Shown: piece after piece, positions 10,254 to 53,545 of the stretch
How positions within the stretch are numbered: position 1 is the stretch's first letter
Layout of the letters: every line of letters begins with the position of its first letter
Assembly: GCA_002688355.1 (NCBI GenBank)
Contig: NZCT01000025.1
Location: forward strand, 27,175 to 91,174
Reading direction: 5' to 3'
DNA: 64,000 nucleotides
Source: an archaeon
GTDB lineage: Archaea; Nanobdellota; Nanobdellia; SCGC-AAA011-G17; GW2011-AR20
Made by a program: the position numbers and the translations under genes
The notes under the pieces: generated by a model
What the model was told of the DNA's origin: nothing
The model's input: only the letters and a program-made list of their open reading frames with translations
Database searches by the model: none

Positions 10254-10774
10254 TGAAGCAAGAACAAGTTGAGAAGATAACTCTCAATATTGGAGTGGGT
10301 AGTCCTGGAGACAAATTAACGAAAGCTAAAAAACTGTTAGAAGTAATATCAGGATCAAAAGCAGTTGAAACAAAAACTATGAAAAGAATTCCAACGTGGG
10401 GATTAAGACCAAATCTTGCTATAGGTGTTAAAGTTACATTAAGAGGAGAAAAAGCAGAAAAATTGTTAATAAGATTATTCAGTTCATTAGATAACAAACT
10501 AAATATTAAAAATTTCGATGATTATGGAAACTTTTCATTTGGGATAAAAGAATATATTGATATTCCAGATGTTGAGTATAATCCTGATTTTGGAATGATT
10601 GGATTAGAAGCAGCAGTAACTCTTGAAAGACCAGGATTTAGCATTAAAAAGAGAATGAAAAAAACAAAAATACCATTTAGACACAAAATCAAAAAGCAAG
10701 AAGCAATGGATTTCATAAAATCAAAATTTAAAATAGAAATAGTTGAAGAGGAAGATCAAAATGACCTACAGTAG
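10254..10774 (+). CDS. rpl5: Ribosomal protein uL5; start trimmed to the ATG after the S4e stop
   Basis: [16 protein letters not shown]... L5 signature. Confidence 0.85.
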
Positions 10775-10991
10775 CTTTAGCAAATCAACAAAACAATTGG
10801 AAAATAAACCAGCGAAGCTAAAAAAATTTTTAAAACACAATTCTCCAAAAGATAGAAAATTTGGAGTGACAACAAGAAAATGCAAAATTTGTGGAAGAAT
10901 AGGGGCACATTTAAGAAAATACACTATAGGATTATGCAGACAATGTTTTAGAGAACAAGCAAAAAATTTAGGATTTAAAAAATACTCATAA
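10761..10991 (+). CDS. rps14: Ribosomal protein uS14 (zinc type)
   Basis: [25 protein letters not shown]; overlaps the L5 end. Confidence 0.8.
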
Positions 10992-10992
10992 A

Positions 10993-11385
10993 ATGGCACT
11001 AAACGATCCCTTATCAAATGTCCTTTCCCACATAAATAATTGTGAGAAAACAGGAAAAATAGAATGTACTACTAAACCAACCTCTAATACAATTTTAAAA
11101 GTCTTAGAAATAATGAAAGAACACCATTATGTTGGTGATTATGAGATTATAGAAGATGGAAGGGGCAATATTATCAAAATAAACTTACTAGGAAACATAA
11201 ATAAGTGTAATGTAATAAAACCTAGATTTTCATTTAAACTAAATAATTTGGAAAAATTTGAGAAAAGATTTCTTCTAGCAAGGGATTTCGGATTAATAAT
11301 AGTATCAACAAATAAAGGTTTAATGACACATATGGAAGCTAAAGAGAAAAAATTAGGTGGAAGGCTGATTGCATATGTTTACTAG
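10993..11385 (+). CDS. rps8: Ribosomal protein uS8
   Basis: MALNDPLSNVLSHINNCEK... Confidence 0.85.
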   Translation: MALNDPLSNVLSHINNCEKTGKIECTTKPTSNTILKVLEIMKEHHYVGDYEIIEDGRGNIIKINLLGNINKCNVIKPRFSFKLNNLEKFEKRFLLARDFGLIIVSTNKGLMTHMEAKEKKLGGRLIAYVY

Positions 11386-14273: not shown

Positions 14274-14743
14274 TGACAAAGGTTGCAGTAATAAGAATAA
14301 AAGGAAAGATTGGATTGAAAAGAGGAATTAAAGATGCGTTAAATATTTTAAGATTATATAACAAACATACTTGTGTAATTATTGACAATACTGAAAATTA
14401 TATTGGGATGCTGAAAAAAGTTAAAGATTATGTAACTTGGGGGGAAATAGATGGAAGCACATTCAAATTACTAATAAGTCAAAGGGGTAGAATTGCTGGA
14501 AAAATAAGATTAACAGAAGAATATGCAAAAGATAAATTAAAATTTAATATTGATGATTTTATCAAAGATTTCTTTTCTGGAAAGAAAAAATTCAAAGATA
14601 TTCCGGGATTCAAACCTTTTTTCAAACTAAAACCACCTACAAAAGGTTTTGAAAGAGGCGGAATTAAAAAACCATTCTCTCTTGGAGGGGTTTTAGGATA
14701 TAGAAAAGAAAAAATTAATGATCTAATTCAAAGGATGCTCTAA
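14273..14743 (+). CDS. rpl30: Ribosomal protein uL30
   Basis: AVIRIKGKIGLKRGIKDALNILRL. Confidence 0.8.
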   Translation: MTKVAVIRIKGKIGLKRGIKDALNILRLYNKHTCVIIDNTENYIGMLKKVKDYVTWGEIDGSTFKLLISQRGRIAGKIRLTEEYAKDKLKFNIDDFIKDFFSGKKKFKDIPGFKPFFKLKPPTKGFERGGIKKPFSLGGVLGYRKEKINDLIQRML

Positions 14744-14744
14744 A

Positions 14745-15203
14745 ATGGCAGTCAATAAAAGAAATAAAAATAAAAGATTTAGAGGCTCTATGACACATGG
14801 ATGGGGTTCTAAAAAGAAACACAGAGGTTCTGGAAATAGAGGTGGATTTGGTATGGCTGGAACTGGAAAGAGAGCTGACCAAAATAAAATCTCAATCTTA
14901 AAATACAGAGGTCATGAATACTTTGGAAAGAAGGGTTTCAAAAGACCTCAGAAAATATTAAAGAAATCAAAAACAATTAACATTGGATTAATAGAACAAA
15001 AGCTTAAATATTACTTGTCCGTAAAAAAAGTAAAAGAAGATAATGGAAAGTTTATTATTAATTTAAAAGATCTAGGTTATGATAAACTTTTAGGCTCCGG
15101 AAAAGCAAAATCCAAAATGGAAATAACTGGAGAAAAAGCATCAAAAAAAGCAATGGATAAATTAGAAAAAATAGGTGGTAAATTTACATCACAAGCAAAG
15201 TAA
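14745..15203 (+). CDS. rpl15: Ribosomal protein uL15
   Basis: HGWGSKKKHRGSGNRGGFGMAG. Confidence 0.85.
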   Translation: MAVNKRNKNKRFRGSMTHGWGSKKKHRGSGNRGGFGMAGTGKRADQNKISILKYRGHEYFGKKGFKRPQKILKKSKTINIGLIEQKLKYYLSVKKVKEDNGKFIINLKDLGYDKLLGSGKAKSKMEITGEKASKKAMDKLEKIGGKFTSQAK

Positions 15204-15205
15204 AA

Positions 15206-16584
15206 TGTCTCTTAGAAATTTTCTTACAAGCTTACCAGAAGTTAGAAGACCAGATCAGAAACATCGACCATTTAAGTCAAAATTAAAATGGACATTGATG
15301 ATGCTCCTAGGTTATTTTTTACTTGGAGTAATACCATTATATGGTCTTGGAGAAAATTCTTTACAACAATTTGAATTCTTATCTATAATTTTGGGAGCAC
15401 AGTTTGGTTCATTAATATCTCTAGGTATTGGACCAATCGTAACAGCATCTATCGTATTACAATTATTAGTTGGTTCAGGTTTACTAAAGCTAGATACAAC
15501 AAAACATGAAGATAGAATTTATTTTCAAGGTATACAAAAAGTTCTAGCAATATTTTTCATAGTTTTCGAGGCAATTATTTATGTTTTCATGGGTGGGCTC
15601 TCTCCCGCAGCAGGGTTTTCTCCATGGATTTTAATATTCCAACTTCTACTAGGTGGATTACTGATATTATTCATGGATGAAGTAACAAGCAAATGGGGCT
15701 TTGGTTCAGGTGTGTCATTATTCATTGCAGCAGGAGTAGCTTCACAAATAGTAATAAGTGCATTCTCTCCATTAACAACATCAGGACAATTAGCATTTGG
15801 TTCAGGACAAGCACCAGTTGGAAGAGTTTTTGTTCTTTTCATCTCTTTATTTCAAGGAAATATACTAGAAGCATCTCTAGCATTTTCTGCCATCCTAGCA
15901 ACGATAGTAGTATTTTTATTAGCTGTTTATGCCCAAGCTATGAAAGTAGAAATTCCATTATCATTTGGTAGAGTAAGAGGTTATGGAATAAGATGGCCTC
16001 TAAATTTTATTTATACAAGTAATATTCCAGTTATATTAGTGGCCGCGTTATTAGCAAACGTTCAATTATGGGCTAGTTTATTAGAAAGAGCAGGGCATCC
16101 TTTCTTAGGAACATTCTCAGGACAAGTTCCTGTAACAGGTGTAGTGGCATGGTTATATTCTCCAAATTTAATTCAAGATTTATTAACAGGAAGTTTTGTA
16201 GGCATAAGCATAGCTAAATCTTTGATATATGTTTTATTTATGGTAGTTGGTTCCGTAATTTTCTCCATATTTTGGGTACAAACAGCAGGTATGGATGCAA
16301 AAAGTCAAGCAAAGCAAATTATGGCTTCTGGTTTACAAGTTCCAGGATTTAGAAGAGATGAAAGAGTCTTAGAACATTTATTAAAAAGATATATTGGTCC
16401 TCTAACAATAATGGGTGCAATAACAGTGGGAGTTCTAGCCGCGATGGCTGATTTAACAGGAGCTTTGTCAAGAGGAACAGGAATTTTATTAGCAGTAATG
16501 ATAATCTATAAATTATATGAAGATATTGCACAACAACATATGATGGATATGCATCCAGCATTAAGACAATTTATGAAAAAATAA
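15206..16584 (+). CDS. secY: Preprotein translocase subunit SecY; start trimmed to the ATG after the L15 stop
   Basis: 10-TM SecY pattern and conserved operon position. Confidence 0.9.
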
Positions 16585-23671: not shown

Positions 23672-24691
23672 ATGAAATTTTTATTTAAACTAATGGAAGC
23701 CTTCGGAACTTCAGGTAATGAAGAATCTGTTAGAGCTATGATCTCCAAAGAAATTAAACCATATGTAGATGATCTTTCTGTTGATAAATATGGTAACTTA
23801 ATAGCACACAAAAAAGGTGCTCTACCAAAAGTAATGCTTGCAGCTCATATGGATGAAGTAGGTTTAATGATTAAAAGTATAGATGACAGAGGAAGAATTG
23901 CTTTCTCAAATGTTGGAGGCATAGAACCACTAGTTTTAGTAGGTCATGCTGTCCATATAAATAAAAAAGGAAATAAAGTACATGGTGTTATAACAACAGA
24001 AGAAGTAAGTAATGATTTTTCAGTTGAAAAAATGCCTAAAATAGCAGATTTATTTGTAGATACAGGTCTATCAAAAACAGCATTAACAAAATTAGGTGTA
24101 AAACCAGGAGAATATTTAATGTTAGATCATAAAGTAAATCATCATTTAGGAAATAAAAATCTTATAGCCGGGAAAGCCTTAGATGATAGAATAGGTTGTT
24201 ATATTCTAACAGAATTAATTAAAAAAATAAAAAGTTCGAAAAATGAAATTTATTTTGTCTTTACAGTTCAAGAAGAAATTGGATTATATGGAGCAAAAAC
24301 CTCTGCCTATAAAGTAGAACCTGATTGGGCCATTGCTGTTGACGTCACAAATTCAGATGACAGAGCACCACAACCAACAATAGAATTAGGCAAAGGACCT
24401 TGTCTAACTATAAAAGATGCAGATATGATTTCCAATAAATGTTTAAACAATCATCTAGAAAATATAGCAAAAAAAATTAAGATACCAATACAATATGATG
24501 TTTCAGATTTTGGAGCTACAGATGCTGCAAATATTTCCATATCCAAAGAAGGCGTTTCCTCAACAGTCGTTTCTGTTCCAGTAAGAAATTTACACTCCAC
24601 GATAAGCATAGCACATAAAAATGATATAGAAAATTCAATTACACTTCTAAGAGAATTATTAAAGAACCCGCCAAAATTATGTTTAACCTAG
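23672..24691 (+). CDS. M42 family (TET/FrvX-like) aminopeptidase
   Basis: MLAAHMDEVGLMIKSIDDRGRIAF..GGIEP, ALDDRIGC, QEEIGLYGAKT. Confidence 0.85.
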   Translation: MKFLFKLMEAFGTSGNEESVRAMISKEIKPYVDDLSVDKYGNLIAHKKGALPKVMLAAHMDEVGLMIKSIDDRGRIAFSNVGGIEPLVLVGHAVHINKKGNKVHGVITTEEVSNDFSVEKMPKIADLFVDTGLSKTALTKLGVKPGEYLMLDHKVNHHLGNKNLIAGKALDDRIGCYILTELIKKIKSSKNEIYFVFTVQEEIGLYGAKTSAYKVEPDWAIAVDVTNSDDRAPQPTIELGKGPCLTIKDADMISNKCLNNHLENIAKKIKIPIQYDVSDFGATDAANISISKEGVSSTVVSVPVRNLHSTISIAHKNDIENSITLLRELLKNPPKLCLT

Positions 24692-25327
24692 AACTAATCT
24701 TGCATCAACTACAGTTGCTTTATCATCATGCATTATAATTGGATTTATATCTAATTCTTGTAAATTATCGTGCTTTAAAGGAATTCTAGATATTTGTATT
24801 AATATTTTCTTTAGCAATTTAATATTAACAGGTTTTTCTCCCCTTACACCATATAAAATAGATTTAGCTTTCAATTCATCAATTAACTCTTGAGCATTTT
24901 TATCATCTATAGGACAAACTCTAAAATTAACATCTTTTATAACTTCTGTAAAAACTCCTCCAAAACCAAATCCAATCACATGTCCAAAAACATCATCTTT
25001 TTTTAACCCAATAAACAATTCTTTACCCTTTTTAAATTCCTGAACTAAAATACCTTCAAATTTTTTAACCTTTAATTTTTTAACAATACTCATTATCTCT
25101 TCATATTCTTTTTTAACATCATTAATATTATAACAAATTCTAACACCACCAACATCACTTTTATGTAAAACTTCTGTAGACATAATTTTTAAATCAATAG
25201 GAAATCTAATTTTTTTAATTGCATCTAAAACTTCTTCATAAGAATTTGTTAAAAATCTTGTAGATACCGGTATTTTATATTTTAATAAAAATTCTTCTGC
25301 TTGATACTCTGTATAAATTATTTGCAT
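24683..25327 (-). CDS. acdB: Acetyl-CoA synthetase (ADP-forming) beta subunit (ATP-grasp)
   Basis: ATP-grasp pattern LKYKIPV...KIMSTEVLHKSDVGGVRI...; partner alpha subunit at 27704. Confidence 0.7.
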   Translation of the reverse strand: MQIIYTEYQAEEFLLKYKIPVSTRFLTNSYEEVLDAIKKIRFPIDLKIMSTEVLHKSDVGGVRICYNINDVKKEYEEIMSIVKKLKVKKFEGILVQEFKKGKELFIGLKKDDVFGHVIGFGFGGVFTEVIKDVNFRVCPIDDKNAQELIDELKAKSILYGVRGEKPVNIKLLKKILIQISRIPLKHDNLQELDINPIIMHDDKATVVDARLVLG

Positions 25328-25385: not shown

Positions 25386-26132
25386 CTATCTCATAAACTT
25401 CCATTCATCTTTCTTAAATTTATTTTCAATCAAATTTTCAGCTCTTTTTAATTCATCCTCAGACCAAGTATCAAAAGTAAACTCTTTATCTTTTGTAAAA
25501 CCTTTAATTAAAGAATTAATTACTTCATCTTTAGTTAAATTATTATGATCTAAAACACAAGTAACTCTTTCCTTAACATTACTAATCATTTTATCAGAGA
25601 TCTTCTCTTTTCCAACATTCAAATATGAAAACATTTTATTTACATCCAAACTATAAATTAAAGTTCCATGTATTAAAACACAATTATTCCTTATTGTTAA
25701 GGCATTACCAGAAATTTTCTTATTATCAACAATAATATCATTTATTGGTTTAAACTCCCCTTTTAATCCTATTAATCCTAAACTGTCAATAATCCAATCT
25801 CCAACTATTTTATAGCATTTAGTTATATCATTAGTAAAGTACTTTGTTGGGACTGCAACACTAAAAGTTAATCCACCATCATTATCTTGGTAAACAGCTC
25901 CACCACCAGAAATTCTCCTAACAAAATCCACATTATCTTCTTTACATTTTTCTATATTAACTTCATCTTTAATTTTCTGAAAATAACCAATAATTACAGA
26001 ACTATTCTTCCAGCCATAAAATCTTATAGTGGGTTTAACTAATTCTTTTCCAACATATTCTGTTAGCACCTCATCTAAAGCTAAATTCATATTTGGTTCA
26101 TTTAACTCTAAATTAATTACTCGCCATTTCAT
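25386..26132 (-). CDS. lplA: Lipoate-protein ligase A, catalytic N-terminal domain (LplA)
   Basis: BPL/LPL catalytic domain RRISGGGAVYQDNDGGLTFSV; K...isGnA motif KKISGNAL. Confidence 0.75.
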   Translation of the reverse strand: MKWRVINLELNEPNMNLALDEVLTEYVGKELVKPTIRFYGWKNSSVIIGYFQKIKDEVNIEKCKEDNVDFVRRISGGGAVYQDNDGGLTFSVAVPTKYFTNDITKCYKIVGDWIIDSLGLIGLKGEFKPINDIIVDNKKISGNALTIRNNCVLIHGTLIYSLDVNKMFSYLNVGKEKISDKMISNVKERVTCVLDHNNLTKDEVINSLIKGFTKDKEFTFDTWSEDELKRAENLIENKFKKDEWKFMR

Positions 26133-27703: not shown

Positions 27704-29062
27704 TTGGATTTAAATAAGTTTTTCAAAGCCAAATCTATAGCCATAGTTGGCGTCTCAAAAACTCCTGGAAAAGTTGGACATGTAATTTTTAGAAATTTAA
27801 TAGATGCTCATTACAAAGGAGAATTATATGTTGTAAATCCAAATGCAAAAGAAATTCTAGGCTACAAATCTTATAAAAAAGTTCAAGATATTAAAAAACC
27901 AATAGACCTAGTAGCAATAGCAGTTCCAGCTGTTTTAGTTTTAAAAGTTTTACAAGATTGTCAAAAAGCTAAAGTAAAAAATGTAATAATTGTAACTTCT
28001 GGTTTCAGAGAAACAGGAAATGAACAACTAGAAAATAAATTAAGAAATTTCTTAATCCATAATAGGATGAATGCTATCGGTGTTAATTGTTTAGGTGTCT
28101 TGGACACTTACACAAATGTAGATACTTTATTCTTACCAAGATTTAGACTAAAAAGACCCAAAAAAGGCGGAATAGCTTTTATCACTCAATCTGGAGCAGT
28201 TGGTTCAACAATCTTAGATTTAGCTTCTAAGAATAATTATGGTTTCTCAAAATTTGTAAGTTATGGTAATGCAACACAAGTAGATGAGGCAGATATTATA
28301 GAATACTTAGCTAATGACAAACAAACAAAAGTAATCTGCATGTACATAGAAGGTGTTGTAGATGGGAAAAAGTTCATGAGAATAGCATCAAAAGCTTCAA
28401 AGAAAAAACCAATCTTGGTTCTAAAAGGTGGAACTTCAAAAGAAGGACATAAAGCTACAATTTCTCATACAGGTTCTTTAGCTGGAAATGAAAAAATATA
28501 CAATGGGGTTTTCAAACAAACAGGAATTATACAAGTAGAAACTTTAGAAGATATGTTTGATTACGCAAGATTATTAGAAAAATCAATGAAACCAAAGGGA
28601 AAAAGAATTCAAGTTATAACAAACGGTGGTGGTTTTGGAATAATAACTACTGACGCTTTAGTTAAGAATGGGTTAGAACTTGCAACTTTATCAAAAGATT
28701 CTGAACGAATATTAAAGAAAAACTTCCCACCAATCGCTCAGATACAAAATCCATTAGATGTTTTAGGAGACGCTACTACAGATAGATATAAATTATCAAT
28801 TGAAACTTTCCTATATGATAAAAACATAGACATTATTTTAGTTATAGCTTTATTACAGACTCCATTAATAACAGTAGAAATAGTAGATACAATAACAGAA
28901 TTAAATTCATTAAATAAAAAACCAATAATTGTAGTTTCAACAGGTGGAGATTTTACAGAAGTGCTAAGAAATTCTTTAGAAGAAAATGGAGTTCCAACAT
29001 TTGTTTTTCCAGAAAATTCAGCTAGAGCAATTAAAGCTTTAGTAGATTATAATTCAAACTAA
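27704..29062 (+). CDS. acdA: Acetyl-CoA synthetase (ADP-forming) alpha subunit
   Basis: CoA-binding AIVGVSKTPGKVGH; phosphohistidine loop ISHTGSLAG. Confidence 0.8.
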   Translation: MDLNKFFKAKSIAIVGVSKTPGKVGHVIFRNLIDAHYKGELYVVNPNAKEILGYKSYKKVQDIKKPIDLVAIAVPAVLVLKVLQDCQKAKVKNVIIVTSGFRETGNEQLENKLRNFLIHNRMNAIGVNCLGVLDTYTNVDTLFLPRFRLKRPKKGGIAFITQSGAVGSTILDLASKNNYGFSKFVSYGNATQVDEADIIEYLANDKQTKVICMYIEGVVDGKKFMRIASKASKKKPILVLKGGTSKEGHKATISHTGSLAGNEKIYNGVFKQTGIIQVETLEDMFDYARLLEKSMKPKGKRIQVITNGGGFGIITTDALVKNGLELATLSKDSERILKKNFPPIAQIQNPLDVLGDATTDRYKLSIETFLYDKNIDIILVIALLQTPLITVEIVDTITELNSLNKKPIIVVSTGGDFTEVLRNSLEENGVPTFVFPENSARAIKALVDYNSN

Positions 29063-29880: not shown

Positions 29881-29940
29881 ACTATAAAATTAGTATATTT
29901 TATATATAAGTTTATTTGATTTAATCAAGAGGTGAAATAG

Positions 29941-30951
29941 TTGAAGTTTTTATACAAATTAATGAATGCATTTGGTGTTTCTGGTTCAGAAGAAGAAGTG
30001 AGAGATATTATAAAAAAAGAAGTAAAGAAATATATTTCTGATATTAAAGTTGATAAATTAGGGAACTTAATAGTGCATAAAAAAGGTGATCAACCAAGAA
30101 TTATGGTTGCAGCTCATATGGATGAAATAGGCTTAATAATAAAATCAATAGATCATAAAGGAAGAATTCGTTTTTCATCTCTTGGAGGAATAGAACCTCT
30201 AACATTATTAGGACAAAGAGTACATATTTTTACAAAAAGAGATTTCATAAACGGATTTATTTCTTTAGATGAGATAAGTAATGATTCTATTTTACATAAA
30301 CTACCAGACATGCAAGATCTTTTCATAGACACAGGATTAAATAAAAAAGAATTAACTGAATTAGGAGTAGAAATAGGTTCTTCTTTAGCAACAGGACAAA
30401 GAAGAAATTTTAACCTAGGCAAAAAAGATATAATAGCAGGAAAAGCTTTAGATGATAGGATAGGTTGTTTTATCTTAATAGAATTAATAAAAAAAGCATA
30501 CAGATTCAAAAATGAAATTTACTTTGTCTTTACAGTTCAAGAAGAAATTGGTCTTTATGGGGCAAAGACCTCTGCTTACCAAATTGATCCAGAATATGCT
30601 CTAGTAGCAGAAACAACATCTTCAGATGACATGAAGTTTGAACCTTCAATAGAAATAGGCAAAGGACCTTGTTTAACAATTAAAAATGCTGAAAGTGTTA
30701 CAGATAAAAAAATAAACAAATGGATTAAAGAGACTGCAAAGAAAAAAGATATACCTTTACAATACGATATTAATGATATTGGAACAACAGACGCAATGAC
30801 AATCAGCATTTCAAAAGGAGGCGTTCCATCTTCAGTAGCTTCTGTACCAGTTAGAAACATCCATAGTGCAATGGGCATTTCTCATAAAGATGATATTGAA
30901 AATGCTATTATATTATTTGAAGAACTTCTTAAAAATCCCATAAAATATTAA
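29941..30951 (+). CDS. M42 family aminopeptidase, paralogue of 23672-24691 (TTG start)
   Basis: MVAAHMDEIGLIIKSIDHKGRIRF, ALDDRIGC, QEEIGLYGAKTSAY. Confidence 0.8.
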   Translation: MKFLYKLMNAFGVSGSEEEVRDIIKKEVKKYISDIKVDKLGNLIVHKKGDQPRIMVAAHMDEIGLIIKSIDHKGRIRFSSLGGIEPLTLLGQRVHIFTKRDFINGFISLDEISNDSILHKLPDMQDLFIDTGLNKKELTELGVEIGSSLATGQRRNFNLGKKDIIAGKALDDRIGCFILIELIKKAYRFKNEIYFVFTVQEEIGLYGAKTSAYQIDPEYALVAETTSSDDMKFEPSIEIGKGPCLTIKNAESVTDKKINKWIKETAKKKDIPLQYDINDIGTTDAMTISISKGGVPSSVASVPVRNIHSAMGISHKDDIENAIILFEELLKNPIKY

Positions 30952-30952
30952 T

Positions 30953-31885
30953 ATGAAAAATAAAACTATAATTATCGCTTTAGGTGGAAATGCTTTAATC
31001 AAAAAAGGAGAAAAACATACTTCTAGGAATCTTGTTAAGAACATTTCTAAAGTTTGCAAAAATATAATTCCAATTATAAAAGATAATAAAACAATTATTT
31101 CTCATGGTAATGGTCCAGAAATAGGTTACCTATTATTGCAAAATGAAGCTTCTAAAAAATTACCACAAATGCCTCTAGATATTTTAGGAGCACAATCTCA
31201 AGGATTAATCGGTTATCCTTTGGAAGAACAATTATTAAATGAATTAAGAAAGAAAAACATTAAAAGAAATATTTCCACAATACTTACACAAGTTCTCGTA
31301 GATAAAAAAGATCCTGCTTTTAAAGAACCAACAAAATTCGTTGGTCCATATTACACAAAACAACAAGCAAAAAAATTATCTAAAAAAGGAATGAAAATAA
31401 AAGAGGATTCTAAAAAAGGATACAGAAGAGTAGTTCCTTCCCCAAAACCAATTAAAATCATAGAAGAAAATACAATTAAGAAATTAGTCAATAAAAATAA
31501 CATAACCATAGCAGCAGGTGGTGGAGGAATTCCAGTAATAAGGAAAAATAATTTGCTTCAAGGAATAGAGGCTGTAATAGATAAAGATCTAGCAAGTTCA
31601 TTATTAGCAAAATCAGTAAAGGCTAGTTTATTGTTAATATTAACAGATATACCTAAGGTTGCAATTAATTTTAAACAAAAGAATCAGAGATTTTTAAGTT
31701 CAGTAGATATAAAAACAATCAAGTTATACAAAGAGCAAGGACATTTTCCTCCTGGAAGTATGGGTCCAAAAATTGATGCAGCAATAGATTTTTTAGAGAA
31801 CAAAGGCAAAAAAGTCATAATAACAAATCCAGAAAATGCTTACAAAGCTTTATTAGGTAAAGCTGGTACAATAGTAACTAAATAA
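30953..31885 (+). CDS. arcC: Carbamate kinase
   Basis: IIALGGNALI, HGNGPEIGY. Confidence 0.85.
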   Translation: MKNKTIIIALGGNALIKKGEKHTSRNLVKNISKVCKNIIPIIKDNKTIISHGNGPEIGYLLLQNEASKKLPQMPLDILGAQSQGLIGYPLEEQLLNELRKKNIKRNISTILTQVLVDKKDPAFKEPTKFVGPYYTKQQAKKLSKKGMKIKEDSKKGYRRVVPSPKPIKIIEENTIKKLVNKNNITIAAGGGGIPVIRKNNLLQGIEAVIDKDLASSLLAKSVKASLLLILTDIPKVAINFKQKNQRFLSSVDIKTIKLYKEQGHFPPGSMGPKIDAAIDFLENKGKKVIITNPENAYKALLGKAGTIVTK

Positions 31886-31893
31886 AAAAGAGG

Positions 31894-33216
31894 TTGATGA
31901 TGAGTAAAATAAATGTTATAATTGCAGGTGCAGGTGGCAGAGATTTTCAAAACTTTTTAGTTTATTTTAAAAATAACTCAAACTTCAATGTAGTTGCGTT
32001 TACAGCAACACAAATCCCAGGTATAGAAAAAAGACATTTTCCTAAAGAACTTTCAGGATCTAAATACAAAAAAGGAATAAAAATCTACCCTGAAAAAGAT
32101 CTTCCAAATTTAATAAAAAAATTAAATGTAGACTATGTTTACTTATGTTATTCTGATTTAAGTCATCAACAAGTTGGAGATATTGCTTCTGTTGTTTTAG
32201 CAAATGGCGCAAATTTTGGTTTACTTGGAACAGAACAAACCTGGATCAAATCTAAAATTCCAGTAATAAGTGTTTGTGCTGTTCGTACAGGTTGTGGTAA
32301 ATCTAGAGTTACAAGAAAAATTGGACTTTACTTAAAAAGTAAAAATAAGAGATTTGTAATTTTAAGACATCCAATGCCTTATGGAGATTTAAACAAACAA
32401 GCTGTTCAAAAATTTTATACTTATGAAGATCTAATAAAGGCAAAATGTACTGTAGAAGAATTAGAAGAATATGAACACCATATAAGGCAAGGGTTTCCAG
32501 TATTTGCAGGTGTTGACTATGAAAAAATTCTAAGAGAAGCAGAAAAAGAAGCAGATGTAATATTATGGGATGGTGGAAATAATGATTTTTCTTTCATAAA
32601 ACCAGACTTGAATTTAGTTTTGGTAGATCCTAGAAGAGCTGGCCATGGTTTAAGCTATTATCCTGGAGAGGTTAACTTACGTATAGCAGATATTGTTATT
32701 GTTAATAGAATGTTTGGGATTACTAATGAACAAATTCAAAAAGTAAAAGATAATGTAAAATCAGTAAATAAAAATTCAAAAATTGTTGATGTTACTTCTT
32801 TAGTTTTAGTAGAAGATCCTAAATTAATTAGAAATAAAAAAGTTTTAATTATTGGAGATGGACCTACATTAACTCATGGTGGTATGGCAACAGGAATTGG
32901 AACAGCGGCTGCTATTAAATATAAAGCAAAGAAAATTGTAGAACCAAGAAAATATGCCGTAGGTTCAATAAAAGAAACTTATGAAAAATTCCCACATCTA
33001 AAGTCAGAATTATCTGCAATGGGTTATAGCAAAAAACAATTAAAAGATCTTGAGAAATCTATAAATAGAGTTCCTTGTGATATAATAATTGATGGAACTC
33101 CTTCAGATATTAAGAAATTAATTAAAATAAAAAAAGAAGTTATTTACTCTGGATATGATATAGATGAAAAAACATTAGGTCCAATATACAAAGCAATTGA
33201 TAAAATAATAAAATGA
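31894..33216 (+). CDS. P-loop NTPase-domain protein of unknown function (possibly COG2403 / cyclic-2,3-diphosphoglycerate-synthetase-like)
   Basis: N-terminal Rossmann-like VIIAGAGGRD; Walker-A-like AVRTGCGKSRVT; translationally coupled (ATGA overlap) to the downstream carbamoyltransferase. Confidence 0.35.
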   Translation: MMMSKINVIIAGAGGRDFQNFLVYFKNNSNFNVVAFTATQIPGIEKRHFPKELSGSKYKKGIKIYPEKDLPNLIKKLNVDYVYLCYSDLSHQQVGDIASVVLANGANFGLLGTEQTWIKSKIPVISVCAVRTGCGKSRVTRKIGLYLKSKNKRFVILRHPMPYGDLNKQAVQKFYTYEDLIKAKCTVEELEEYEHHIRQGFPVFAGVDYEKILREAEKEADVILWDGGNNDFSFIKPDLNLVLVDPRRAGHGLSYYPGEVNLRIADIVIVNRMFGITNEQIQKVKDNVKSVNKNSKIVDVTSLVLVEDPKLIRNKKVLIIGDGPTLTHGGMATGIGTAAAIKYKAKKIVEPRKYAVGSIKETYEKFPHLKSELSAMGYSKKQLKDLEKSINRVPCDIIIDGTPSDIKKLIKIKKEVIYSGYDIDEKTLGPIYKAIDKIIK

Positions 33217-34115
33217 GACATTTACTTTCAATAGAAGAATTAGAAAAAAAAGATATCTTAGATATTATAAATTTAGCAATTAAAATTAAAAAAAAATCAA
33301 AACACTATTCTAAATTAATGTACGAGAAATCTTTGTTAATGATTTTTGAATTACCATCGTTAAGAACAAGAATATCTTTTGAAACAGCAATGACTCAAAT
33401 GGGTGGTCACGCAATTAACTATTATACAATACATTCTCCATGGGGAGTGGGTAAAGAATCTATTGAAGACGTAGGTAATGTTGTTTCTCGTTATGTAAAT
33501 GCTGTAATGACAAGAATAAAAGATCATAATGAAATAGTTAAGCTAGCACAAAATTCACAAGTTCCAATAATAAATGGATTATCAAATAAAGAACATCCTT
33601 GCCAAATATTAGGAGATTTATTAACAATATATGAAAAAGGAAAATTAAAAAATTTAAAATTAGCTTATCTTGGAGATGCAAATAATAATGTAACATATTC
33701 TCTAATGCATGCTTGTAGTAAAATGGGCATACAAATGAGTATAGCTTGTCCACAAACAGAAGAATTTCTTCCATCCGAAGACGTAATAAGAAAAACTAAA
33801 ACTAAAGTTTTCAAAAATCCAGGAGATGCTACAAGAAACGCTGATGTTGTTTACACAGATTCTTGGATGAGTTACTCAATTCCTAAAAAAGAAAAAATAA
33901 GAAGAACTAAAGCTCTTAAAAGATATCAAGTCACTAAAGATTTAATGGGAATAACAAAAAAAGATTCTATATTTATGCACTGTCTTCCTGCTTTACGTGA
34001 ACACGAAGTTACTAAAGATGTTATAGACGGATCTAAAAGTGTAGTGTTTGATCAAGCTGAAAATAGAATGCATATACAAAAAGCAATTATTACATGGTGT
34101 TTGGGAAAGCTTTAA
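33213..34115 (+). CDS. arcB: Ornithine/putrescine carbamoyltransferase family protein
   Basis: SLRTR carbamoyl-phosphate motif, HCLPA motif; C-terminal DxW-S-M box diverged. Confidence 0.75.
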   Translation: MRHLLSIEELEKKDILDIINLAIKIKKKSKHYSKLMYEKSLLMIFELPSLRTRISFETAMTQMGGHAINYYTIHSPWGVGKESIEDVGNVVSRYVNAVMTRIKDHNEIVKLAQNSQVPIINGLSNKEHPCQILGDLLTIYEKGKLKNLKLAYLGDANNNVTYSLMHACSKMGIQMSIACPQTEEFLPSEDVIRKTKTKVFKNPGDATRNADVVYTDSWMSYSIPKKEKIRRTKALKRYQVTKDLMGITKKDSIFMHCLPALREHEVTKDVIDGSKSVVFDQAENRMHIQKAIITWCLGKL

Positions 34116-34139: not shown

Positions 34140-34460
34140 ATGATTAAGTTAGATATTGAAAGAATAATAGAAGAAGCTGATCCTGAAAAACCAATAAAAT
34201 TATCTTGGAATACTTATGTAATTAAACACGGAAATTCTTACGAAACATGTACAATGGATAATACACACCTAAGAATTAGTTTTTTTGATAAAAGAGGACA
34301 GGAAAAAAATTATATCAGTCAAAGATTCGAAACAATTATCACTAAAACAAGAACAGTAATAGAATATTTTTCCGTAAAAAGAAAGTTAAATCAATTTGAT
34401 TTAACTGTTGAAACTCCAAATGAAATAGGCCATAATTTTCTTTATCCAAAAACCTTTTAA
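34140..34460 (+). CDS. Hypothetical protein
   Basis: ORF only. Confidence 0.3.
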   Translation: MIKLDIERIIEEADPEKPIKLSWNTYVIKHGNSYETCTMDNTHLRISFFDKRGQEKNYISQRFETIITKTRTVIEYFSVKRKLNQFDLTVETPNEIGHNFLYPKTF

Positions 34461-34484: not shown

Positions 34485-34994
34485 ATGGGTATGTACAAAT
34501 ATATTCAAAAAATCTGGAAAAAGCCAGTTGAAAATCTTGGTGAAACTCTAAGAAATAGAATGATAGAGTGGAGAACATCAGAAACTGTTGTTAGAGTTGA
34601 AAAACCAACAAGATTAGATAGAGCTCATGCTCTTGGCTACAAAGCAAAGAAAGGATATATTATTGTTCGTGTTCGTGTTAGTAAGGGTAGAAGAATGAGA
34701 GAAAAACCTGCAGGTGGTAGAAGGTCTAAACATTCTGGAAGAAGAAAAGTTGTTTCTAAAAGTTACCAATGGATTGCAGAGGAAAGAGCAAATAGAAGAT
34801 ATGTAAATTGTGAAGTTCTTAACAGTTATCCATTGATCTCAGATGGAAAATTCCATTTTTTTGAAGTTATATTGTTAGACAGAGTAACTGCAGCTAAATA
34901 TCCAAAAGCTAGCTGGGTAATTAACAATCAAGGTAGAGTTTACAGAGGTAAAACAAGCGCTGGCCAAAAATCTAGAGGATTAAGAAAAAAATAA
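34485..34994 (+). CDS. rpl15e: Ribosomal protein eL15
   Basis: MYKYIQKIWKKP...RLDRAHALGYKAKKGYIIVRVRV..GRR. Confidence 0.85.
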   Translation: MGMYKYIQKIWKKPVENLGETLRNRMIEWRTSETVVRVEKPTRLDRAHALGYKAKKGYIIVRVRVSKGRRMREKPAGGRRSKHSGRRKVVSKSYQWIAEERANRRYVNCEVLNSYPLISDGKFHFFEVILLDRVTAAKYPKASWVINNQGRVYRGKTSAGQKSRGLRKK

Positions 34995-51524: not shown

Positions 51525-51955
51525 TTTATATACAAAGGATGAGAATGTTTAAAAGTGTTTTTATGAAATTAAATTATATGGATAATCTAAAAAGTATACA
51601 TGAAAATATTTTAAAAAAGATAAAAGGGGAAGGGGCATTAGAAGGAATACTCACATATAGAGAACATAAGGAGATATATGAAAAACTGCCTACAGAACAT
51701 GCTGAATTCTATTGGAGAGAAATATTCCAAGCAATAGAGAAGAAAGAGAATTTACAACCCATAAGTATCTTAGCAAAAGATGATCCTTTTAATGATGTAG
51801 ATCTATTTTCTCTAGCTGAAGATGAATTACTAGAAATAAGAAAATATAGGCAAAATTTACCTCTTGATATTAGTTTAGCAAATTATATTTTTGATGTATA
51901 TGAAAACTCTATAAAATTATTTCATAAATGGAAAGAAATACCTATTTCAAATTAA
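51509..51955 (+). CDS. Hypothetical protein
   Basis: ORF only. Confidence 0.3.
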   Translation: MLRLPFYIQRMRMFKSVFMKLNYMDNLKSIHENILKKIKGEGALEGILTYREHKEIYEKLPTEHAEFYWREIFQAIEKKENLQPISILAKDDPFNDVDLFSLAEDELLEIRKYRQNLPLDISLANYIFDVYENSIKLFHKWKEIPISN

Positions 51956-53021
51956 CAATAGTCTTAGTTCCTTTTATACCTAAACTTACTTCTTTAAAAT
52001 TTATTAACTTCAAATCTCGTAATTTATTTAGTTTAGATTCTTTAAATCTCCTATATTTTATTTCTTTATCACTCTTTCCCAAGTATAATTCATATATTTC
52101 TTTACTACTTTTGCTTTCATTATCTTTAATAATTTCTAATAGTAATCTTTCATCATCATTTAAACTTTTACTCTCAGAATTTTTATTTAATTCACCACTA
52201 GAAACTTTAATTTTATCAATAGCTTTCTTAGCATAATCTAAAGTTATTTTTTTACTAGAATTTTCTTCTGCAATATTCCCACTTTCCTTTAATAAAAATA
52301 AACCAGTTCTTAAATCATTTACATTATGAGTATATGAACTTATCTCATCTAAAGACTCTTTATCAAAAATATTACTAACAAAAGCATACTCAATTCTCTT
52401 ATCTAAAATACCTTTCACTTCTGTTAAATTATATGCTCTAAAATCTAAATTTTCTAAAGTTAATCTAGATCTTAATCTATTGTCTAATTTAATCAACCAT
52501 TCTTTATTATTTGTAATAAATATTAGTGTTTTATTATAAATTTGTTCTAAAACCATGTAGATCACAGAAATATCTTCTATCTTATCACATTCATCAAAAC
52601 AAATAACAGCAGATTTCCTATTTAATTTTTTTTTAATTTCATCAAATAATTCATTAGTAGTCTTATTATGTGTAAATTTATATCCAATAGCATCACATAT
52701 ATCTAAAGCAATTCTATGACTACTAGAGTCCTTCCAACAATTAATATAAATAGGTTTAACCTCTTCATCAAAACCATCATCTTCCAATTCTTTAAAAACA
52801 GCTTTTACAGCTAAAGTCTTTCCAATTCCTGGGCTTCCAGAAATAACAATATTTTTCCCATTTCTATTATGGAATAATGGTTTTATACATTCTGCAATAT
52901 ATTTTTGTTCATTTTCTCTGTATTGAATTATTGGAGGAAAGAAACTAATATCTAAAGCTAAGTGATTCTTAAATATAGATTCATCTCCTTTTAAAAAATC
53001 TCTATTAAATAAATCTGGCAT
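51942..53021 (-). CDS. orc1: Orc1/Cdc6 replication initiator
   Basis: AAA+ Walker A ISGSPGIGKTLAV, Walker B CFDECD, C-terminal winged helix. Confidence 0.85.
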   Translation of the reverse strand: MPDLFNRDFLKGDESIFKNHLALDISFFPPIIQYRENEQKYIAECIKPLFHNRNGKNIVISGSPGIGKTLAVKAVFKELEDDGFDEEVKPIYINCWKDSSSHRIALDICDAIGYKFTHNKTTNELFDEIKKKLNRKSAVICFDECDKIEDISVIYMVLEQIYNKTLIFITNNKEWLIKLDNRLRSRLTLENLDFRAYNLTEVKGILDKRIEYAFVSNIFDKESLDEISSYTHNVNDLRTGLFLLKESGNIAEENSSKKITLDYAKKAIDKIKVSSGELNKNSESKSLNDDERLLLEIIKDNESKSSKEIYELYLGKSDKEIKYRRFKESKLNKLRDLKLINFKEVSLGIKGTKTIVNLK

Positions 53022-53132: not shown

Positions 53133-53333
53133 ATGGAAGTTAAAGTAATTTTAGAAAAACAAAAAGAAGGCGGTTACACAGTTTACGCTCCTTCATTATC
53201 AGGTTGTATTTCTCAAGGTGAGACAAAAGAAGAATCTCTAAAGAATATAAAAGAAGCTATAGAGTTATACTTAGAAGTTGATGAAAATGAAATAATTGTA
53301 TATGAAGGGGAGATTGCTGAAATTATAGTATGA
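53133..53333 (+). CDS. hicB: HicB-family antitoxin
   Basis: KQKEGGYTVYAPSLSGCISQGETKEESLKNIKEAIELYLE. Confidence 0.75.
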   Translation: MEVKVILEKQKEGGYTVYAPSLSGCISQGETKEESLKNIKEAIELYLEVDENEIIVYEGEIAEIIV

Positions 53334-53545
53334 AGCTTCCACAAATTTCTGGAAAAGATTTGATTAAAATTCTACGTAGAAATGGTTTTGTTGTTGTAAG
53401 ACAGAAAGGATCACATATAAGATTAGAGAAAAATACTGAAAAAGAAACTATTAAGATTACAGTACCAAATCATAAAACTATAAAAAAAGGAACATTAAAT
53501 CAGATTATAAAAGTATCAGGGTTAAAAGAAGAAGATTTGATATAA
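53330..53545 (+). CDS. hicA: HicA-family toxin (mRNA interferase)
   Basis: LIKILRRNGFVVVRQKGSHIRLEK...ITVPNHKTIKKGTLNQIIK; 4-nt overlap with hicB. Confidence 0.75.
   Translation: MKLPQISGKDLIKILRRNGFVVVRQKGSHIRLEKNTEKETIKITVPNHKTIKKGTLNQIIKVSGLKEEDLI

Follow-up and report, generated by a model that had tools for sequence, protein, structure and literature searches.

The window, meaning the whole stretch of 64,000 nucleotides that was analyzed, carries three co-directional genes at positions 30953–34115, those of a carbamate kinase, a P-loop protein and a probable ornithine carbamoyltransferase (OTC). The open reading frames (ORFs) match the description in an earlier note on this DNA, in which arcC and an OTC-family gene flank a P-loop protein. 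The first gene, arcC (30953–31885, + strand), encodes a carbamate kinase of 310 amino acids that scores above the cutoff of the equivalog model TIGR00746 (395.1 bits against 358.25) and also matches PF00696.

The longest ORF of the middle gene, here called arcE, spans 31894–33216 on the + strand and gives the 440 amino acids of the earlier note when counted from a TTG codon. A GAGGT motif resembling a ribosome-binding site, read at 31890–31894 (+ strand), lies 5 nt ahead of an ATG at 31900; its overlap with the TTG makes the latter an unlikely start. A public protein that is 100% identical to the window protein (P0001, 438 amino acids) begins at this ATG, and the true product, from 31900–33216 (+ strand), is therefore most likely 438 amino acids long.

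The start codon of the third gene and the stop codon of arcE share an ATGA at 33213–33216 (+ strand), confirming the junction noted previously, and the two genes are translationally coupled. This third gene, arcB/argF (33213–34115, + strand), encodes a 300-amino-acid protein that passes two OTC models, NF001986 (353 bits, cutoff 306) and TIGR00658 (320 bits, cutoff 281), and stays under the cutoffs of the putrescine model TIGR04384 (277.6 against 500) and the YgeW model TIGR03316 (37.6 against 500). The choice between ornithine, putrescine and YgeW-type enzymes thus falls to OTC by curated HMM cutoffs. The motifs SLRTR, HPCQ and HCLP are present, while the position of the SMG loop reads DSWMSYS; transferases of the DPANN branch have a D[ST]W[MFI]SY loop in place of the canonical ornithine loop DVWASMG. 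The best solved relatives are the OTCs of P. furiosus (1a1s) and Giardia (3grf), and since the SY loop also occurs in 3grf, the window transferase is most likely still an OTC.

Directly in front of arcC lies a gene for an M42-family aminopeptidase (29941–30951, + strand; PF05343, 279 bits), whose stop codon is 1 nt ahead of the arcC ATG and whose TTG start is 6 nt past a GAGGTG. Upstream of it, the divergent intergenic region is AT-rich, 60 nt long and includes a TATA-like TTTATATATA. The M42 gene, arcC, arcE and arcB are probably transcribed together from this region, near position 29900, with the M42 gene as the probable first member of the transcription unit, and an aminopeptidase encoded in the same operon would probably feed an arginine pathway. 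The closest solved relative of the enzyme is the leucine-preferring PhTET2, rather than the lysine/arginine-preferring TET3; an arginine-specific role was considered and is unsupported by this relationship. The neighborhood fits a catabolic role, with genes close by for two M42 aminopeptidases, the alpha and beta subunits of ADP-forming acetyl-CoA synthetase, a 2-oxoacid dehydrogenase and a lipoate ligase. Against such a role, the ~83 kb of window and flanks contain neither an antiporter for arginine and ornithine nor any other transporter of amino acids.

The absence of arcA and of an agmatine deiminase from the 64 kb, as noted previously, holds and extends to ~19 kb of flanking sequence. The search for deiminases covered the window, ~9 kb upstream on the 110,960-bp parent contig and ~10 kb downstream on a co-linear sister contig. 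The Pfam-annotated gene tables for these ~83 kb contain neither PF02274 (arginine deiminase) nor PF04371 (agmatine deiminase), and unannotated large ORFs scanned directly with Pfam likewise gave no arginine or agmatine deiminase. The possibility that arcA lies just outside the window is thus not borne out within these flanks.

Identity of the middle protein

Scans of the middle protein with Pfam (2025) and NCBIfam (June 2026) gave zero matches, neither library having a model that recognizes it. Judged by its sequence, it nonetheless belongs to the family of arginine synthetase (ArcE; Thermococcus kodakarensis TK2200), an enzyme characterized by biochemical and genetic work in 2024 (PMC11032458) and 2026 (Michimori et al., Front Microbiol, PMC13260591). 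[quoted passage not shown] TK2200 is specific for L-arginine, rejects agmatine, depends on Mg2+ and prefers ADP over GDP (PMC11032458).

The comparison with TK2200 runs through metagenomic Thermococcus orthologues, recognized by primer matches and synteny, with the TK2200 in-gene primers taken from the supplement of PMC13260591. The exact 33-nt primer had no match in the metagenome contigs; a degenerate pattern based on it found six metagenome loci with 52–55% GC. The 449-amino-acid ORFs at these loci start with MAEKKKKRVLI and agree with the forward primer at 31–32 of 33 nt. Three are complete, two ending in KNCEKLKKE (L088 and L091) and one in KNCEKLRRE (L090), where the reverse primer implies KNCEKLKK followed by a stop. 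In L090, pyrB and pyrI lie ~2 kb downstream, in agreement with the locus tags TK2200 and TK2195/2196. The L091 ORF was taken as a TK2200 orthologue on the basis of its 32/33-nt match to dTK2200inF, its KNCEKLKK end (dTK2200inR) and the pyrB/pyrI genes in its sister L090.

The window protein aligns with the L091 ORF over 421 amino acids without a gap (E 5e-173) at 53% identity, a level which does not prove the same substrate specificity in the DPANN-like branch. The Thermococcus orthologues retain 81 of the 82 invariant columns in the family alignment of the window protein, which itself keeps 82/82. They score 774–777 bits on the HMM of this family and reach up to 72.5% identity to other members; the window branch diverges most within the alignment, with 51–53% identity to Thermococcus.

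Three motifs stand out in the arcE product. The Walker A or P-loop sequence GCGKS (residues 131–135; 32290–32304, + strand) has G131, G133, K134 and S135 invariant in an alignment of 42 family members, and these residues are also present in the Thermococcus orthologues. DGGNND (residues 224–229; 32569–32586, + strand) is invariant from G225 to D229, with D224 conserved at 90% or more; in the AlphaFold2 (AF2) model it follows the beta-strand E220–224, a Walker-B-like position that may indicate its functional role. DGPTLTHGG, in the C-terminal domain (residues 320–327; 32857–32880, + strand), is invariant except for L324, with a conservation of 90% or more. It was picked automatically as a family-specific pattern, retrieved 599 confirmed relatives and is a candidate signature of the substrate site.

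Relatives found in the pattern scan are spread over Caldisericia, Calditrichaeota, Acidobacteria, Bacteroidales, Planctomycetes, Nitrospirae, Clostridia, Bathyarchaeia and Asgard archaea. No Thermococcales were among the 80 best loci of the genome-contig scan, nor did Thermococcus names occur among the members of ten 50%-cluster representatives. Source databases label the homologues “GTPase”, “predicted GTPase” or, in some cases, “cyclic 2,3-diphosphoglycerate synthase”; “GTPase” is an uncurated name and, for the window protein, a mis-annotation. Both this annotation history and the taxonomic spread agree with the published description of arcE. The family is very large, tightly conserved and separate from cyclic 2,3-diphosphoglycerate synthetase (cPGS).

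Gene linkage and direction of the pathway

Of the 80 best loci, which come from unrelated genomes, 24 have arcC and/or an OTC gene beside the arcE homologue, across phyla. A co-directional arcC lies no more than 6 kb away in 21 of the 80, and 14 have an OTC with 37% identity or more. The linkage is present in all four close relatives examined, and with this repetition goes far beyond chance. The order arcC-arcE-arcB recurs in DPANN-like relatives, three of which have the 4-nt ATGA overlap (L092, L093 and L094), and an M42 gene is found no more than 2.5 kb from arcC-arcE in L092, L094 and L095 and ~5.2 kb downstream in L012. The neighborhood conservation for which the earlier note had asked is therefore found, and its proposal that the P-loop protein is functionally tied to genes of carbamoyl phosphate and ATP generation gains support from both linkage and family membership. 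Its suggestion of a new accessory gives way to a known family of enzymes converting arginine to citrulline: ArcE stands in for the missing arcA.

We consider, with a probability of about 85%, that these genes specify the arginine synthetase pathway, an ATP-conserving variant of the arginine deiminase pathway. ArcE (31900–33216) would convert L-arginine, ADP and Pi into L-citrulline, NH3 and ATP; OTC (33213–34115) would then split citrulline by phosphorolysis into ornithine and carbamoyl phosphate, and carbamate kinase (30953–31885) would pass the phosphate of carbamoyl phosphate to ADP. The yield would be 2 ATP per arginine, compared with 1 by the deiminase route. The reaction of ArcE, its reversibility and its specificity for L-arginine are carried over from the literature on T. 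kodakarensis TK2200 and are presumed to apply here. The mechanism is most likely a phosphoryl transfer at the P-loop via an O-phospho-isourea form of citrulline, a proposal of ours that is absent from the papers. Arginine fermentation is most likely the function of the cluster, and the genes would run in the catabolic direction in this organism; as the ArcE reaction is reversible, with a Keq of about 10 at 80°C (PMC11032458), the genes do not fix its direction in vivo.

The enzymes could instead mainly supply carbamoyl phosphate from arginine for pyrimidines, with the gain of ATP being secondary, a role demonstrated for T. kodakarensis in 2026, in which, without a carbamoyl phosphate synthetase (CPS), disruption of arcE or arcB leads to pyrimidine auxotrophy (PMC13260591). 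The absence of carAB from the window and flanks would fit such a role, but pyrB and pyrI are absent from the same region, in contrast to the Thermococcus loci. Furthermore, arcC is dispensable for the anabolic role in T. kodakarensis and yet here forms part of the same tight string, which suggests that carbamoyl phosphate is spent on ATP. As the main function, pyrimidine supply is therefore rather unlikely, although it is compatible with ATP generation and the two are not mutually exclusive.

It is improbable that the same enzymes run backwards and make arginine where argininosuccinate synthetase and lyase are lacking, with carbamate kinase making carbamoyl phosphate, OTC making citrulline and ArcE aminating the citrulline with NH3 and ATP. 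ArcE does synthesize arginine in vitro and supports growth on citrulline in T. kodakarensis, its authors suggest a biosynthetic role in some bacteria without ArgG/ArgH, and neither argG nor argH was seen in the ~83 kb of window and flanks. However, the equilibrium lies on the side of deimination, and carbamoyl phosphate formation by carbamate kinase needs very high ammonium and bicarbonate. Ornithine-biosynthesis genes are absent nearby, whereas an aminopeptidase gene is joined to the cluster and a related locus (L094) has aldehyde dehydrogenase and class-III aminotransferase genes, typical of ornithine breakdown, downstream of arcB. Amino-acid biosynthesis is also generally missing from DPANN-type genomes, which counts against the reverse route.

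The putrescine pathway offered in the earlier note would require an ArcE-like enzyme with a different guanidino or ureido substrate, e.g., one that turns agmatine into carbamoylputrescine, together with a putrescine carbamoyltransferase. The unusual D[ST]W[MFI]SY loop and the divergence of this ArcE branch could be read in this way, but with both curated OTC cutoffs passed, the putrescine model failed (278 against 500), the SY loop shared with the Giardia OTC, every ArcE invariant kept and agmatine rejected by TK2200 (PMC11032458), we regard this as very improbable.

The AF2 model of the window protein (pLDDT 91) has as its best solved match in a Foldseek search of the PDB a cPGS (8oru; E 2e-18, 15% identity, TM-score ~0.45), followed by LpxK structures (4lkv, 4itn and 4ehy; E ~1e-7), while phmmer aligned it with the cPGS 9sxb over a single partial stretch (residues 211–320; E 9e-5, 24.7 bits). 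A P-loop core with the same solved neighbors was published for TK2200, for which LpxK 4EHY was named and similarity to cPGS was low (PMC11032458). Of the previous idea that a cPGS-like enzyme was recruited here, the distant kinship is thus upheld by the 8oru and 9sxb matches and the recruitment is not, the families being separate. That the protein is a cPGS or a COG2403-type “GTPase” unrelated to arginine is scarcely credible: some homologues are so named and cPGS is the nearest solved structure, but these weak or partial similarities stand against a gapless 53% identity to the TK2200 orthologues, the conserved neighbors are arcC and OTC rather than glycolytic or 2-phosphoglycerate kinase genes, and TK2200 favors ADP over GDP, the “GTPase” label being uncurated.

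Comparison with known systems

The cluster is most likely a case of a pathway already described, here in a small archaeon from the sea, and the gap that is filled is one of annotation rather than biology: an enzyme accounting for “arcB + arcC without arcA” was described in 2024. With no Pfam or NCBIfam model for ArcE and its misnaming in public records, reconstructions of DPANN and many uncultured lineages miss a fermentation of arginine that yields 2 ATP. The tight operon and its conservation in genomes labeled Woesearchaeota or Nanoarchaeota point to arginine as an important source of energy in these small archaea. DPANN are unmentioned in the two ArcE papers (PMC11032458; PMC13260591), and a literature search gave nothing on ArcE in DPANN. 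We put forward, tentatively, that small, low-GC, probably host-dependent DPANN-type archaea use an M42-arcC-arcE-arcB operon, with its own SY-loop subtype of OTC, as their principal ATP source at ocean temperatures, gaining 2 ATP per arginine from peptides or from the host. If true, ArcE would here be seen for the first time in a non-thermophile with a reduced genome, in parallel to the arginine deiminase system from which epibiotic Saccharibacteria benefit. The DPANN-branch enzyme is also a natural candidate for biochemical work on a mesophilic ArcE.

Of the structurally related enzymes, cPGS (8oru, 8ork and 9sxb) is of similar size, has a P-loop core and is the best solved match, but belongs to a separate family with a different substrate and different genomic partners. 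LpxK (4ehy, 4itn and 4lkv) shares the “compact P-loop” kinase core with ArcE, yet it is a lipid kinase of ~310 amino acids with 16% identity and is without the extra N- and C-terminal Rossmann-like domains of ArcE. Weak PF02606 matches are on record for some ArcE homologues.

The likeness to the ArcE pathway of T. kodakarensis is much closer, extending to the same family, length class (438 versus 449 amino acids) and P-loop, the partner enzymes (carbamate kinase and a probable OTC), and the lack of arcA (here in the ~83 kb examined). The genes in T. kodakarensis are scattered (TK2200, TK0871 and TK2158), whereas here arcC, arcE and arcB follow one another tightly in that order, with the ATGA overlap and preceded by an M42 gene, and the OTC has the variant SY loop. 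The hosts differ as well, T. kodakarensis being a hyperthermophile and the source of the window a low-GC (~28%), marine and probably DPANN-type archaeon. With the arginine deiminase pathway (arcABC) the cluster would share both downstream enzymes, a catabolic OTC and a carbamate kinase, and the overall conversion of arginine to ornithine, CO2 and 2 NH3 with substrate-level formation of ATP. It differs in that there is no arcD antiporter gene near it and that the PF02274 deiminase is absent, its place being taken by an unrelated P-loop enzyme that would save the energy released by deimination in the form of a second ATP.

Organization of the gene cluster

The interval 30953–34115 is filled by three co-directional + strand ORFs, as read from the window. 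The first, arcC (30953–31885), encodes a carbamate kinase of 310 aa (TIGR00746 equivalog, 395 bits, cutoff 358), and the last, arcB (33213–34115), a probable ornithine carbamoyltransferase (OTC) of 300 aa possessing both OTCase domains and passing two curated OTC cutoffs. Between them lies arcE (31900–33216), whose start is taken as the ATG of P0001, an identical public protein; a TTG-initiated version spans 31894–33216, with a GAGGT ribosome-binding-like motif (31890–31894) overlapping the TTG at 31894. The arcB start codon overlaps the arcE stop codon (ATGA, 33213–33216). An earlier note had described a carbamate kinase, P-loop protein and carbamoyltransferase cluster with this overlap, which the ORFs, HMM cutoffs and positions 33213–33216 confirm, although its middle ORF, while real, most likely encodes 438 aa from the ATG at 31900, two residues fewer than the 440 noted.

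Upstream of arcC, only 1 nt separates the end of an M42 (TET-type) aminopeptidase gene (29941–30951, + strand) from the arcC start codon (ATG). In front of this aminopeptidase gene lies a divergent intergenic region, 60 nt long and AT-rich, that carries a TATA-like element and a GAGGTG motif, and M42-arcC-arcE-arcB is therefore likely to be transcribed as a single unit. A 106-aa ORF without a family match (34140–34460, + strand) lies 24 nt past arcB and precedes ribosomal protein L15e (34485–34994); it is a called gene on the public contig, and was not seen after arcB in the related loci L092–L094.

The window comes from a Tara Oceans marine-metagenome contig of 110,960 bp (ERZ909131 k127_656826). 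Pfam-annotated gene tables for the entire window, ∼9 kb upstream on this parent contig and ∼10 kb downstream, taken from a co-linear sister contig, contained no arginine deiminase (PF02274), agmatine deiminase (PF04371), amino-acid antiporter, argG, argH, carAB or pyrB, and a direct Pfam scan of ten large unannotated ORFs gave nothing relevant. The claim that neither arcA nor an agmatine deiminase occurs in the 64 kb is thus borne out. Elsewhere, a HicB antitoxin/HicA toxin pair (53133–53545, + strand, 4-nt overlap) adjoins a Cdc6/Orc1-type AAA gene (51942–53021, – strand), and outside the window, ∼3 kb before its first position, the parent contig (L002) has a solitary LAGLIDADG homing-endonuclease ORF (14611–15438), flanked by tRNA-binding and topoisomerase VI genes.

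Of the transferase specificities considered for 33213–34115, that of OTC is the most likely: the protein exceeds the cutoffs of both OTC models (NF001986, 353 vs. 306; TIGR00658, 320 vs. 281) and scores far below those of the putrescine carbamoyltransferase (278, cutoff 500) and YgeW (38, cutoff 500) models. The SLRTR, HPCQ and HCLP motifs are present, and the "SMG loop" is a variant, DSWMSYS. All arcE-linked transferases of the DPANN-like loci (the window, L092, L093, L094 and the Woesearchaeota locus L012) carry D[ST]W[MFI]SY[SHQR]IP; bacterial arcE-linked OTCs retain DVWASMGQE, with the canonical ornithine-binding DVWASMG. The best solved matches of the window protein include the OTCs of P. 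furiosus and Giardia (PDB 3grf), and because the latter has the same SY variant, we read these transferases as a probable OTC subtype whose substrate would be unchanged.

Identity of the middle protein

Neither Pfam nor NCBIfam gives any match for the middle protein, and its family was instead identified through homology to orthologues of TK2200 from Thermococcus kodakarensis. At least 8000 candidates matched it in a word-indexed protein search (all E ≤ 1e-5), the best 120 of these being full length and 53–72% identical; members are present in at least 600 GTDB species genomes, and 369 clusters (50% identity) score E ≤ 1e-30. The family is very large and tightly conserved, with 82 invariant columns in a 42-member alignment, including GxGKS (131–135), GGNND (225–229) and DGPT.THGG (320–327). 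Its members are named "GTPase", "predicted GTPase" or occasionally "cyclic 2,3-diphosphoglycerate synthase" in the source databases.

The occurrence of arcC without arcA in many archaea was taken up by Michimori, Yokooji and Atomi (PNAS 2024, PMC11032458), who reported that the gap is filled by homologues of TK2200, previously annotated as hypothetical or putative GTPases, some of which adjoin arcB or arcC. Purified TK2200 catalyzes L-arginine + ADP + Pi ↔ L-citrulline + NH3 + ATP and was named arginine synthetase (ArcE) (PMC11032458). Comparison with TK2200 was made via metagenome orthologues located by published in-gene primers, of which dTK2200inF encodes MAEKKKKRVLI and dTK2200inR encodes ...KNCEKLKK-stop (2026, PMC13260591 supplement). 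The exact dTK2200inF sequence was absent from the metagenome collection; a degenerate pattern, this peptide followed by the family GA.GRD motif, retrieved six loci of 52–55% GC. Three of the six hold complete 449-aa ORFs beginning MAEKKKKRVLI (primer match 31–32 of 33 nt), two ending in KNCEKLKKE and the third, L090, in KNCEKLRRE. L090 also has pyrB and pyrI ∼2 kb downstream, in agreement with the numbering of TK2200 and TK2195/TK2196 in T. kodakarensis. From primer match, C-termini and synteny, these ORFs are taken as close TK2200 orthologues from Thermococcus.

The window protein is 53% identical to one of them, L091, over 421 residues without gaps (E 5e-173). The Thermococcus proteins retain 81 of the 82 invariant columns, score 774–777 bits against the HMM built for the family and reach 72.5% identity to other members, which places TK2200-type enzymes at the center of the family and the window protein on a more divergent branch. 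Rather than a possible new accessory, as first proposed, the P-loop protein thus belongs to the ArcE family, an enzyme described in 2024 (PMC11032458).

An AlphaFold2 model built from the family alignment (mean pLDDT 91, pTM 0.89) was compared with the PDB using Foldseek, returning first Methanothermus fervidus cyclic 2,3-diphosphoglycerate synthetase (cPGS; 8oru, E 2e-18, only 15% identity, TM ∼0.45), then Aquifex LpxK (4lkv, 4itn, 4ehy; E ∼1e-7), followed by DUF1611 proteins and MinD/CobQ-type P-loop ATPases. The modeled fold thus reproduces the neighbors reported for TK2200, for which 4EHY was informative and similarity to cPGS low (PMC11032458). The presence of cPGS and DUF1611 proteins among these neighbors explains the earlier suspicion of such a relationship, although the cPGS similarity is slight. 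The N-terminal strand (residues 3–10, KINVIIAG) resembles residues 311–319 (RNKKVLIIG), where the C-terminal domain begins, and in the model each opens a Rossmann-like beta-alpha unit, a possible sign of an internal duplication on either side of the P-loop core.

Gene neighborhood and proposed pathway

The best 80 genome loci, drawn from at least 600 species genomes, span archaea and many bacterial phyla. Of these 80, 21 have a co-oriented carbamate kinase gene no more than 6 kb away, usually directly downstream, 14 have an OTC (identity 37% or higher) near arcE, and 24 have one or the other beside arcE. Linkage is also conserved in four of the closest relatives (59–70% identity; those named are labeled Woesearchaeota or Nanoarchaeota): arcC is directly upstream of arcE in all four, and in three the arcE stop and the OTC share a 4-nt overlap identical to that of the window. 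An M42 aminopeptidase gene is found no more than 2.5 kb away in three of the four (L092, 8985–9839; L094, 2781–3791; L095, 3390–4403), while in L012 arcC, arcE, OTC and M42 (∼10576–11367) are scattered across 10 kb. This proximity to arcC-arcE(-arcB) is found in DPANN-like relatives and not in bacterial loci and, with the adjoining gene in the window, suggests that peptide-derived amino acids feed the pathway. An arginine preference of the M42 enzyme is unsupported, its closest solved relative being PhTET2 (leucyl).

The "arginine synthetase pathway" comprises ArcE, OTC and carbamate kinase and yields 2 ATP per arginine (PMC11032458). Family membership and genomic context suggest the same function here: ArcE would convert arginine to citrulline with formation of ATP, OTC would phosphorolyse citrulline, and carbamate kinase would provide the second ATP. 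No intermediate has been described for ArcE; one candidate, suggested by us, is citrulline in a phosphorylated isourea form at the P-loop.

Given family membership, the catabolic direction is favored with a probability of roughly 0.7, as it is the direction favored by the equilibrium (PMC11032458), arcC belongs to the same run of genes, and the neighboring genes fit a peptide-fermenting lifestyle. Just upstream of the cluster are a second M42 aminopeptidase (23672–24691, + strand), the two subunits of ADP-forming acetyl-CoA synthetase, encoded on opposite strands (ATP-grasp beta, 24683–25327, – strand; alpha, 27704–29062, + strand), and lipoate-protein ligase (25386–26132, – strand); 2-oxoacid dehydrogenase E1/E2 genes lie downstream of the window (19657–22133 in L003, a sister contig). 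Together these form an amino-acid-fermentation set that is unusual in so small an archaeal genome. Plausible ornithine-catabolic genes in the groundwater, Nanoarchaeota-labeled locus L094 (7003–10493) point the same way: arcB precedes genes for aldehyde dehydrogenase, an unknown protein and class-III aminotransferase, then lipoate ligase and 2-oxoacid dehydrogenase E2, which may extend the cluster catabolically from ornithine to glutamate and onward. Less probably, the cluster would supply carbamoyl phosphate, as the pathway does in Thermococcales (2026, PMC13260591), or would act anabolically in arginine synthesis, against the direction that equilibrium favors.

Comparison with known systems

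The practical point is an annotation gap, as neither Pfam (2025) nor NCBIfam release 20 holds a model matching arginine synthetase, and public names are misleading. The name ArcE was itself used earlier for an arginine/ornithine exchanger (PMC5300872, 2016), and since 2024 also denotes arginine synthetase. The nearest named relatives of the window archaeon are Woesearchaeota and Nanoarchaeota, and the names and synteny of its closest homologues point to a DPANN assignment; DPANN are not mentioned in PMC11032458, PMC13260591 or the other literature searched. The system has been known since 2024, and its discoverers already noted that it is widely distributed and at times clustered with arcB and arcC (PMC11032458). 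Modestly new are what appears to be a compact operon with translational coupling in a marine archaeon of low GC (∼28%), the recurrent M42 partner and the variant OTC loop.
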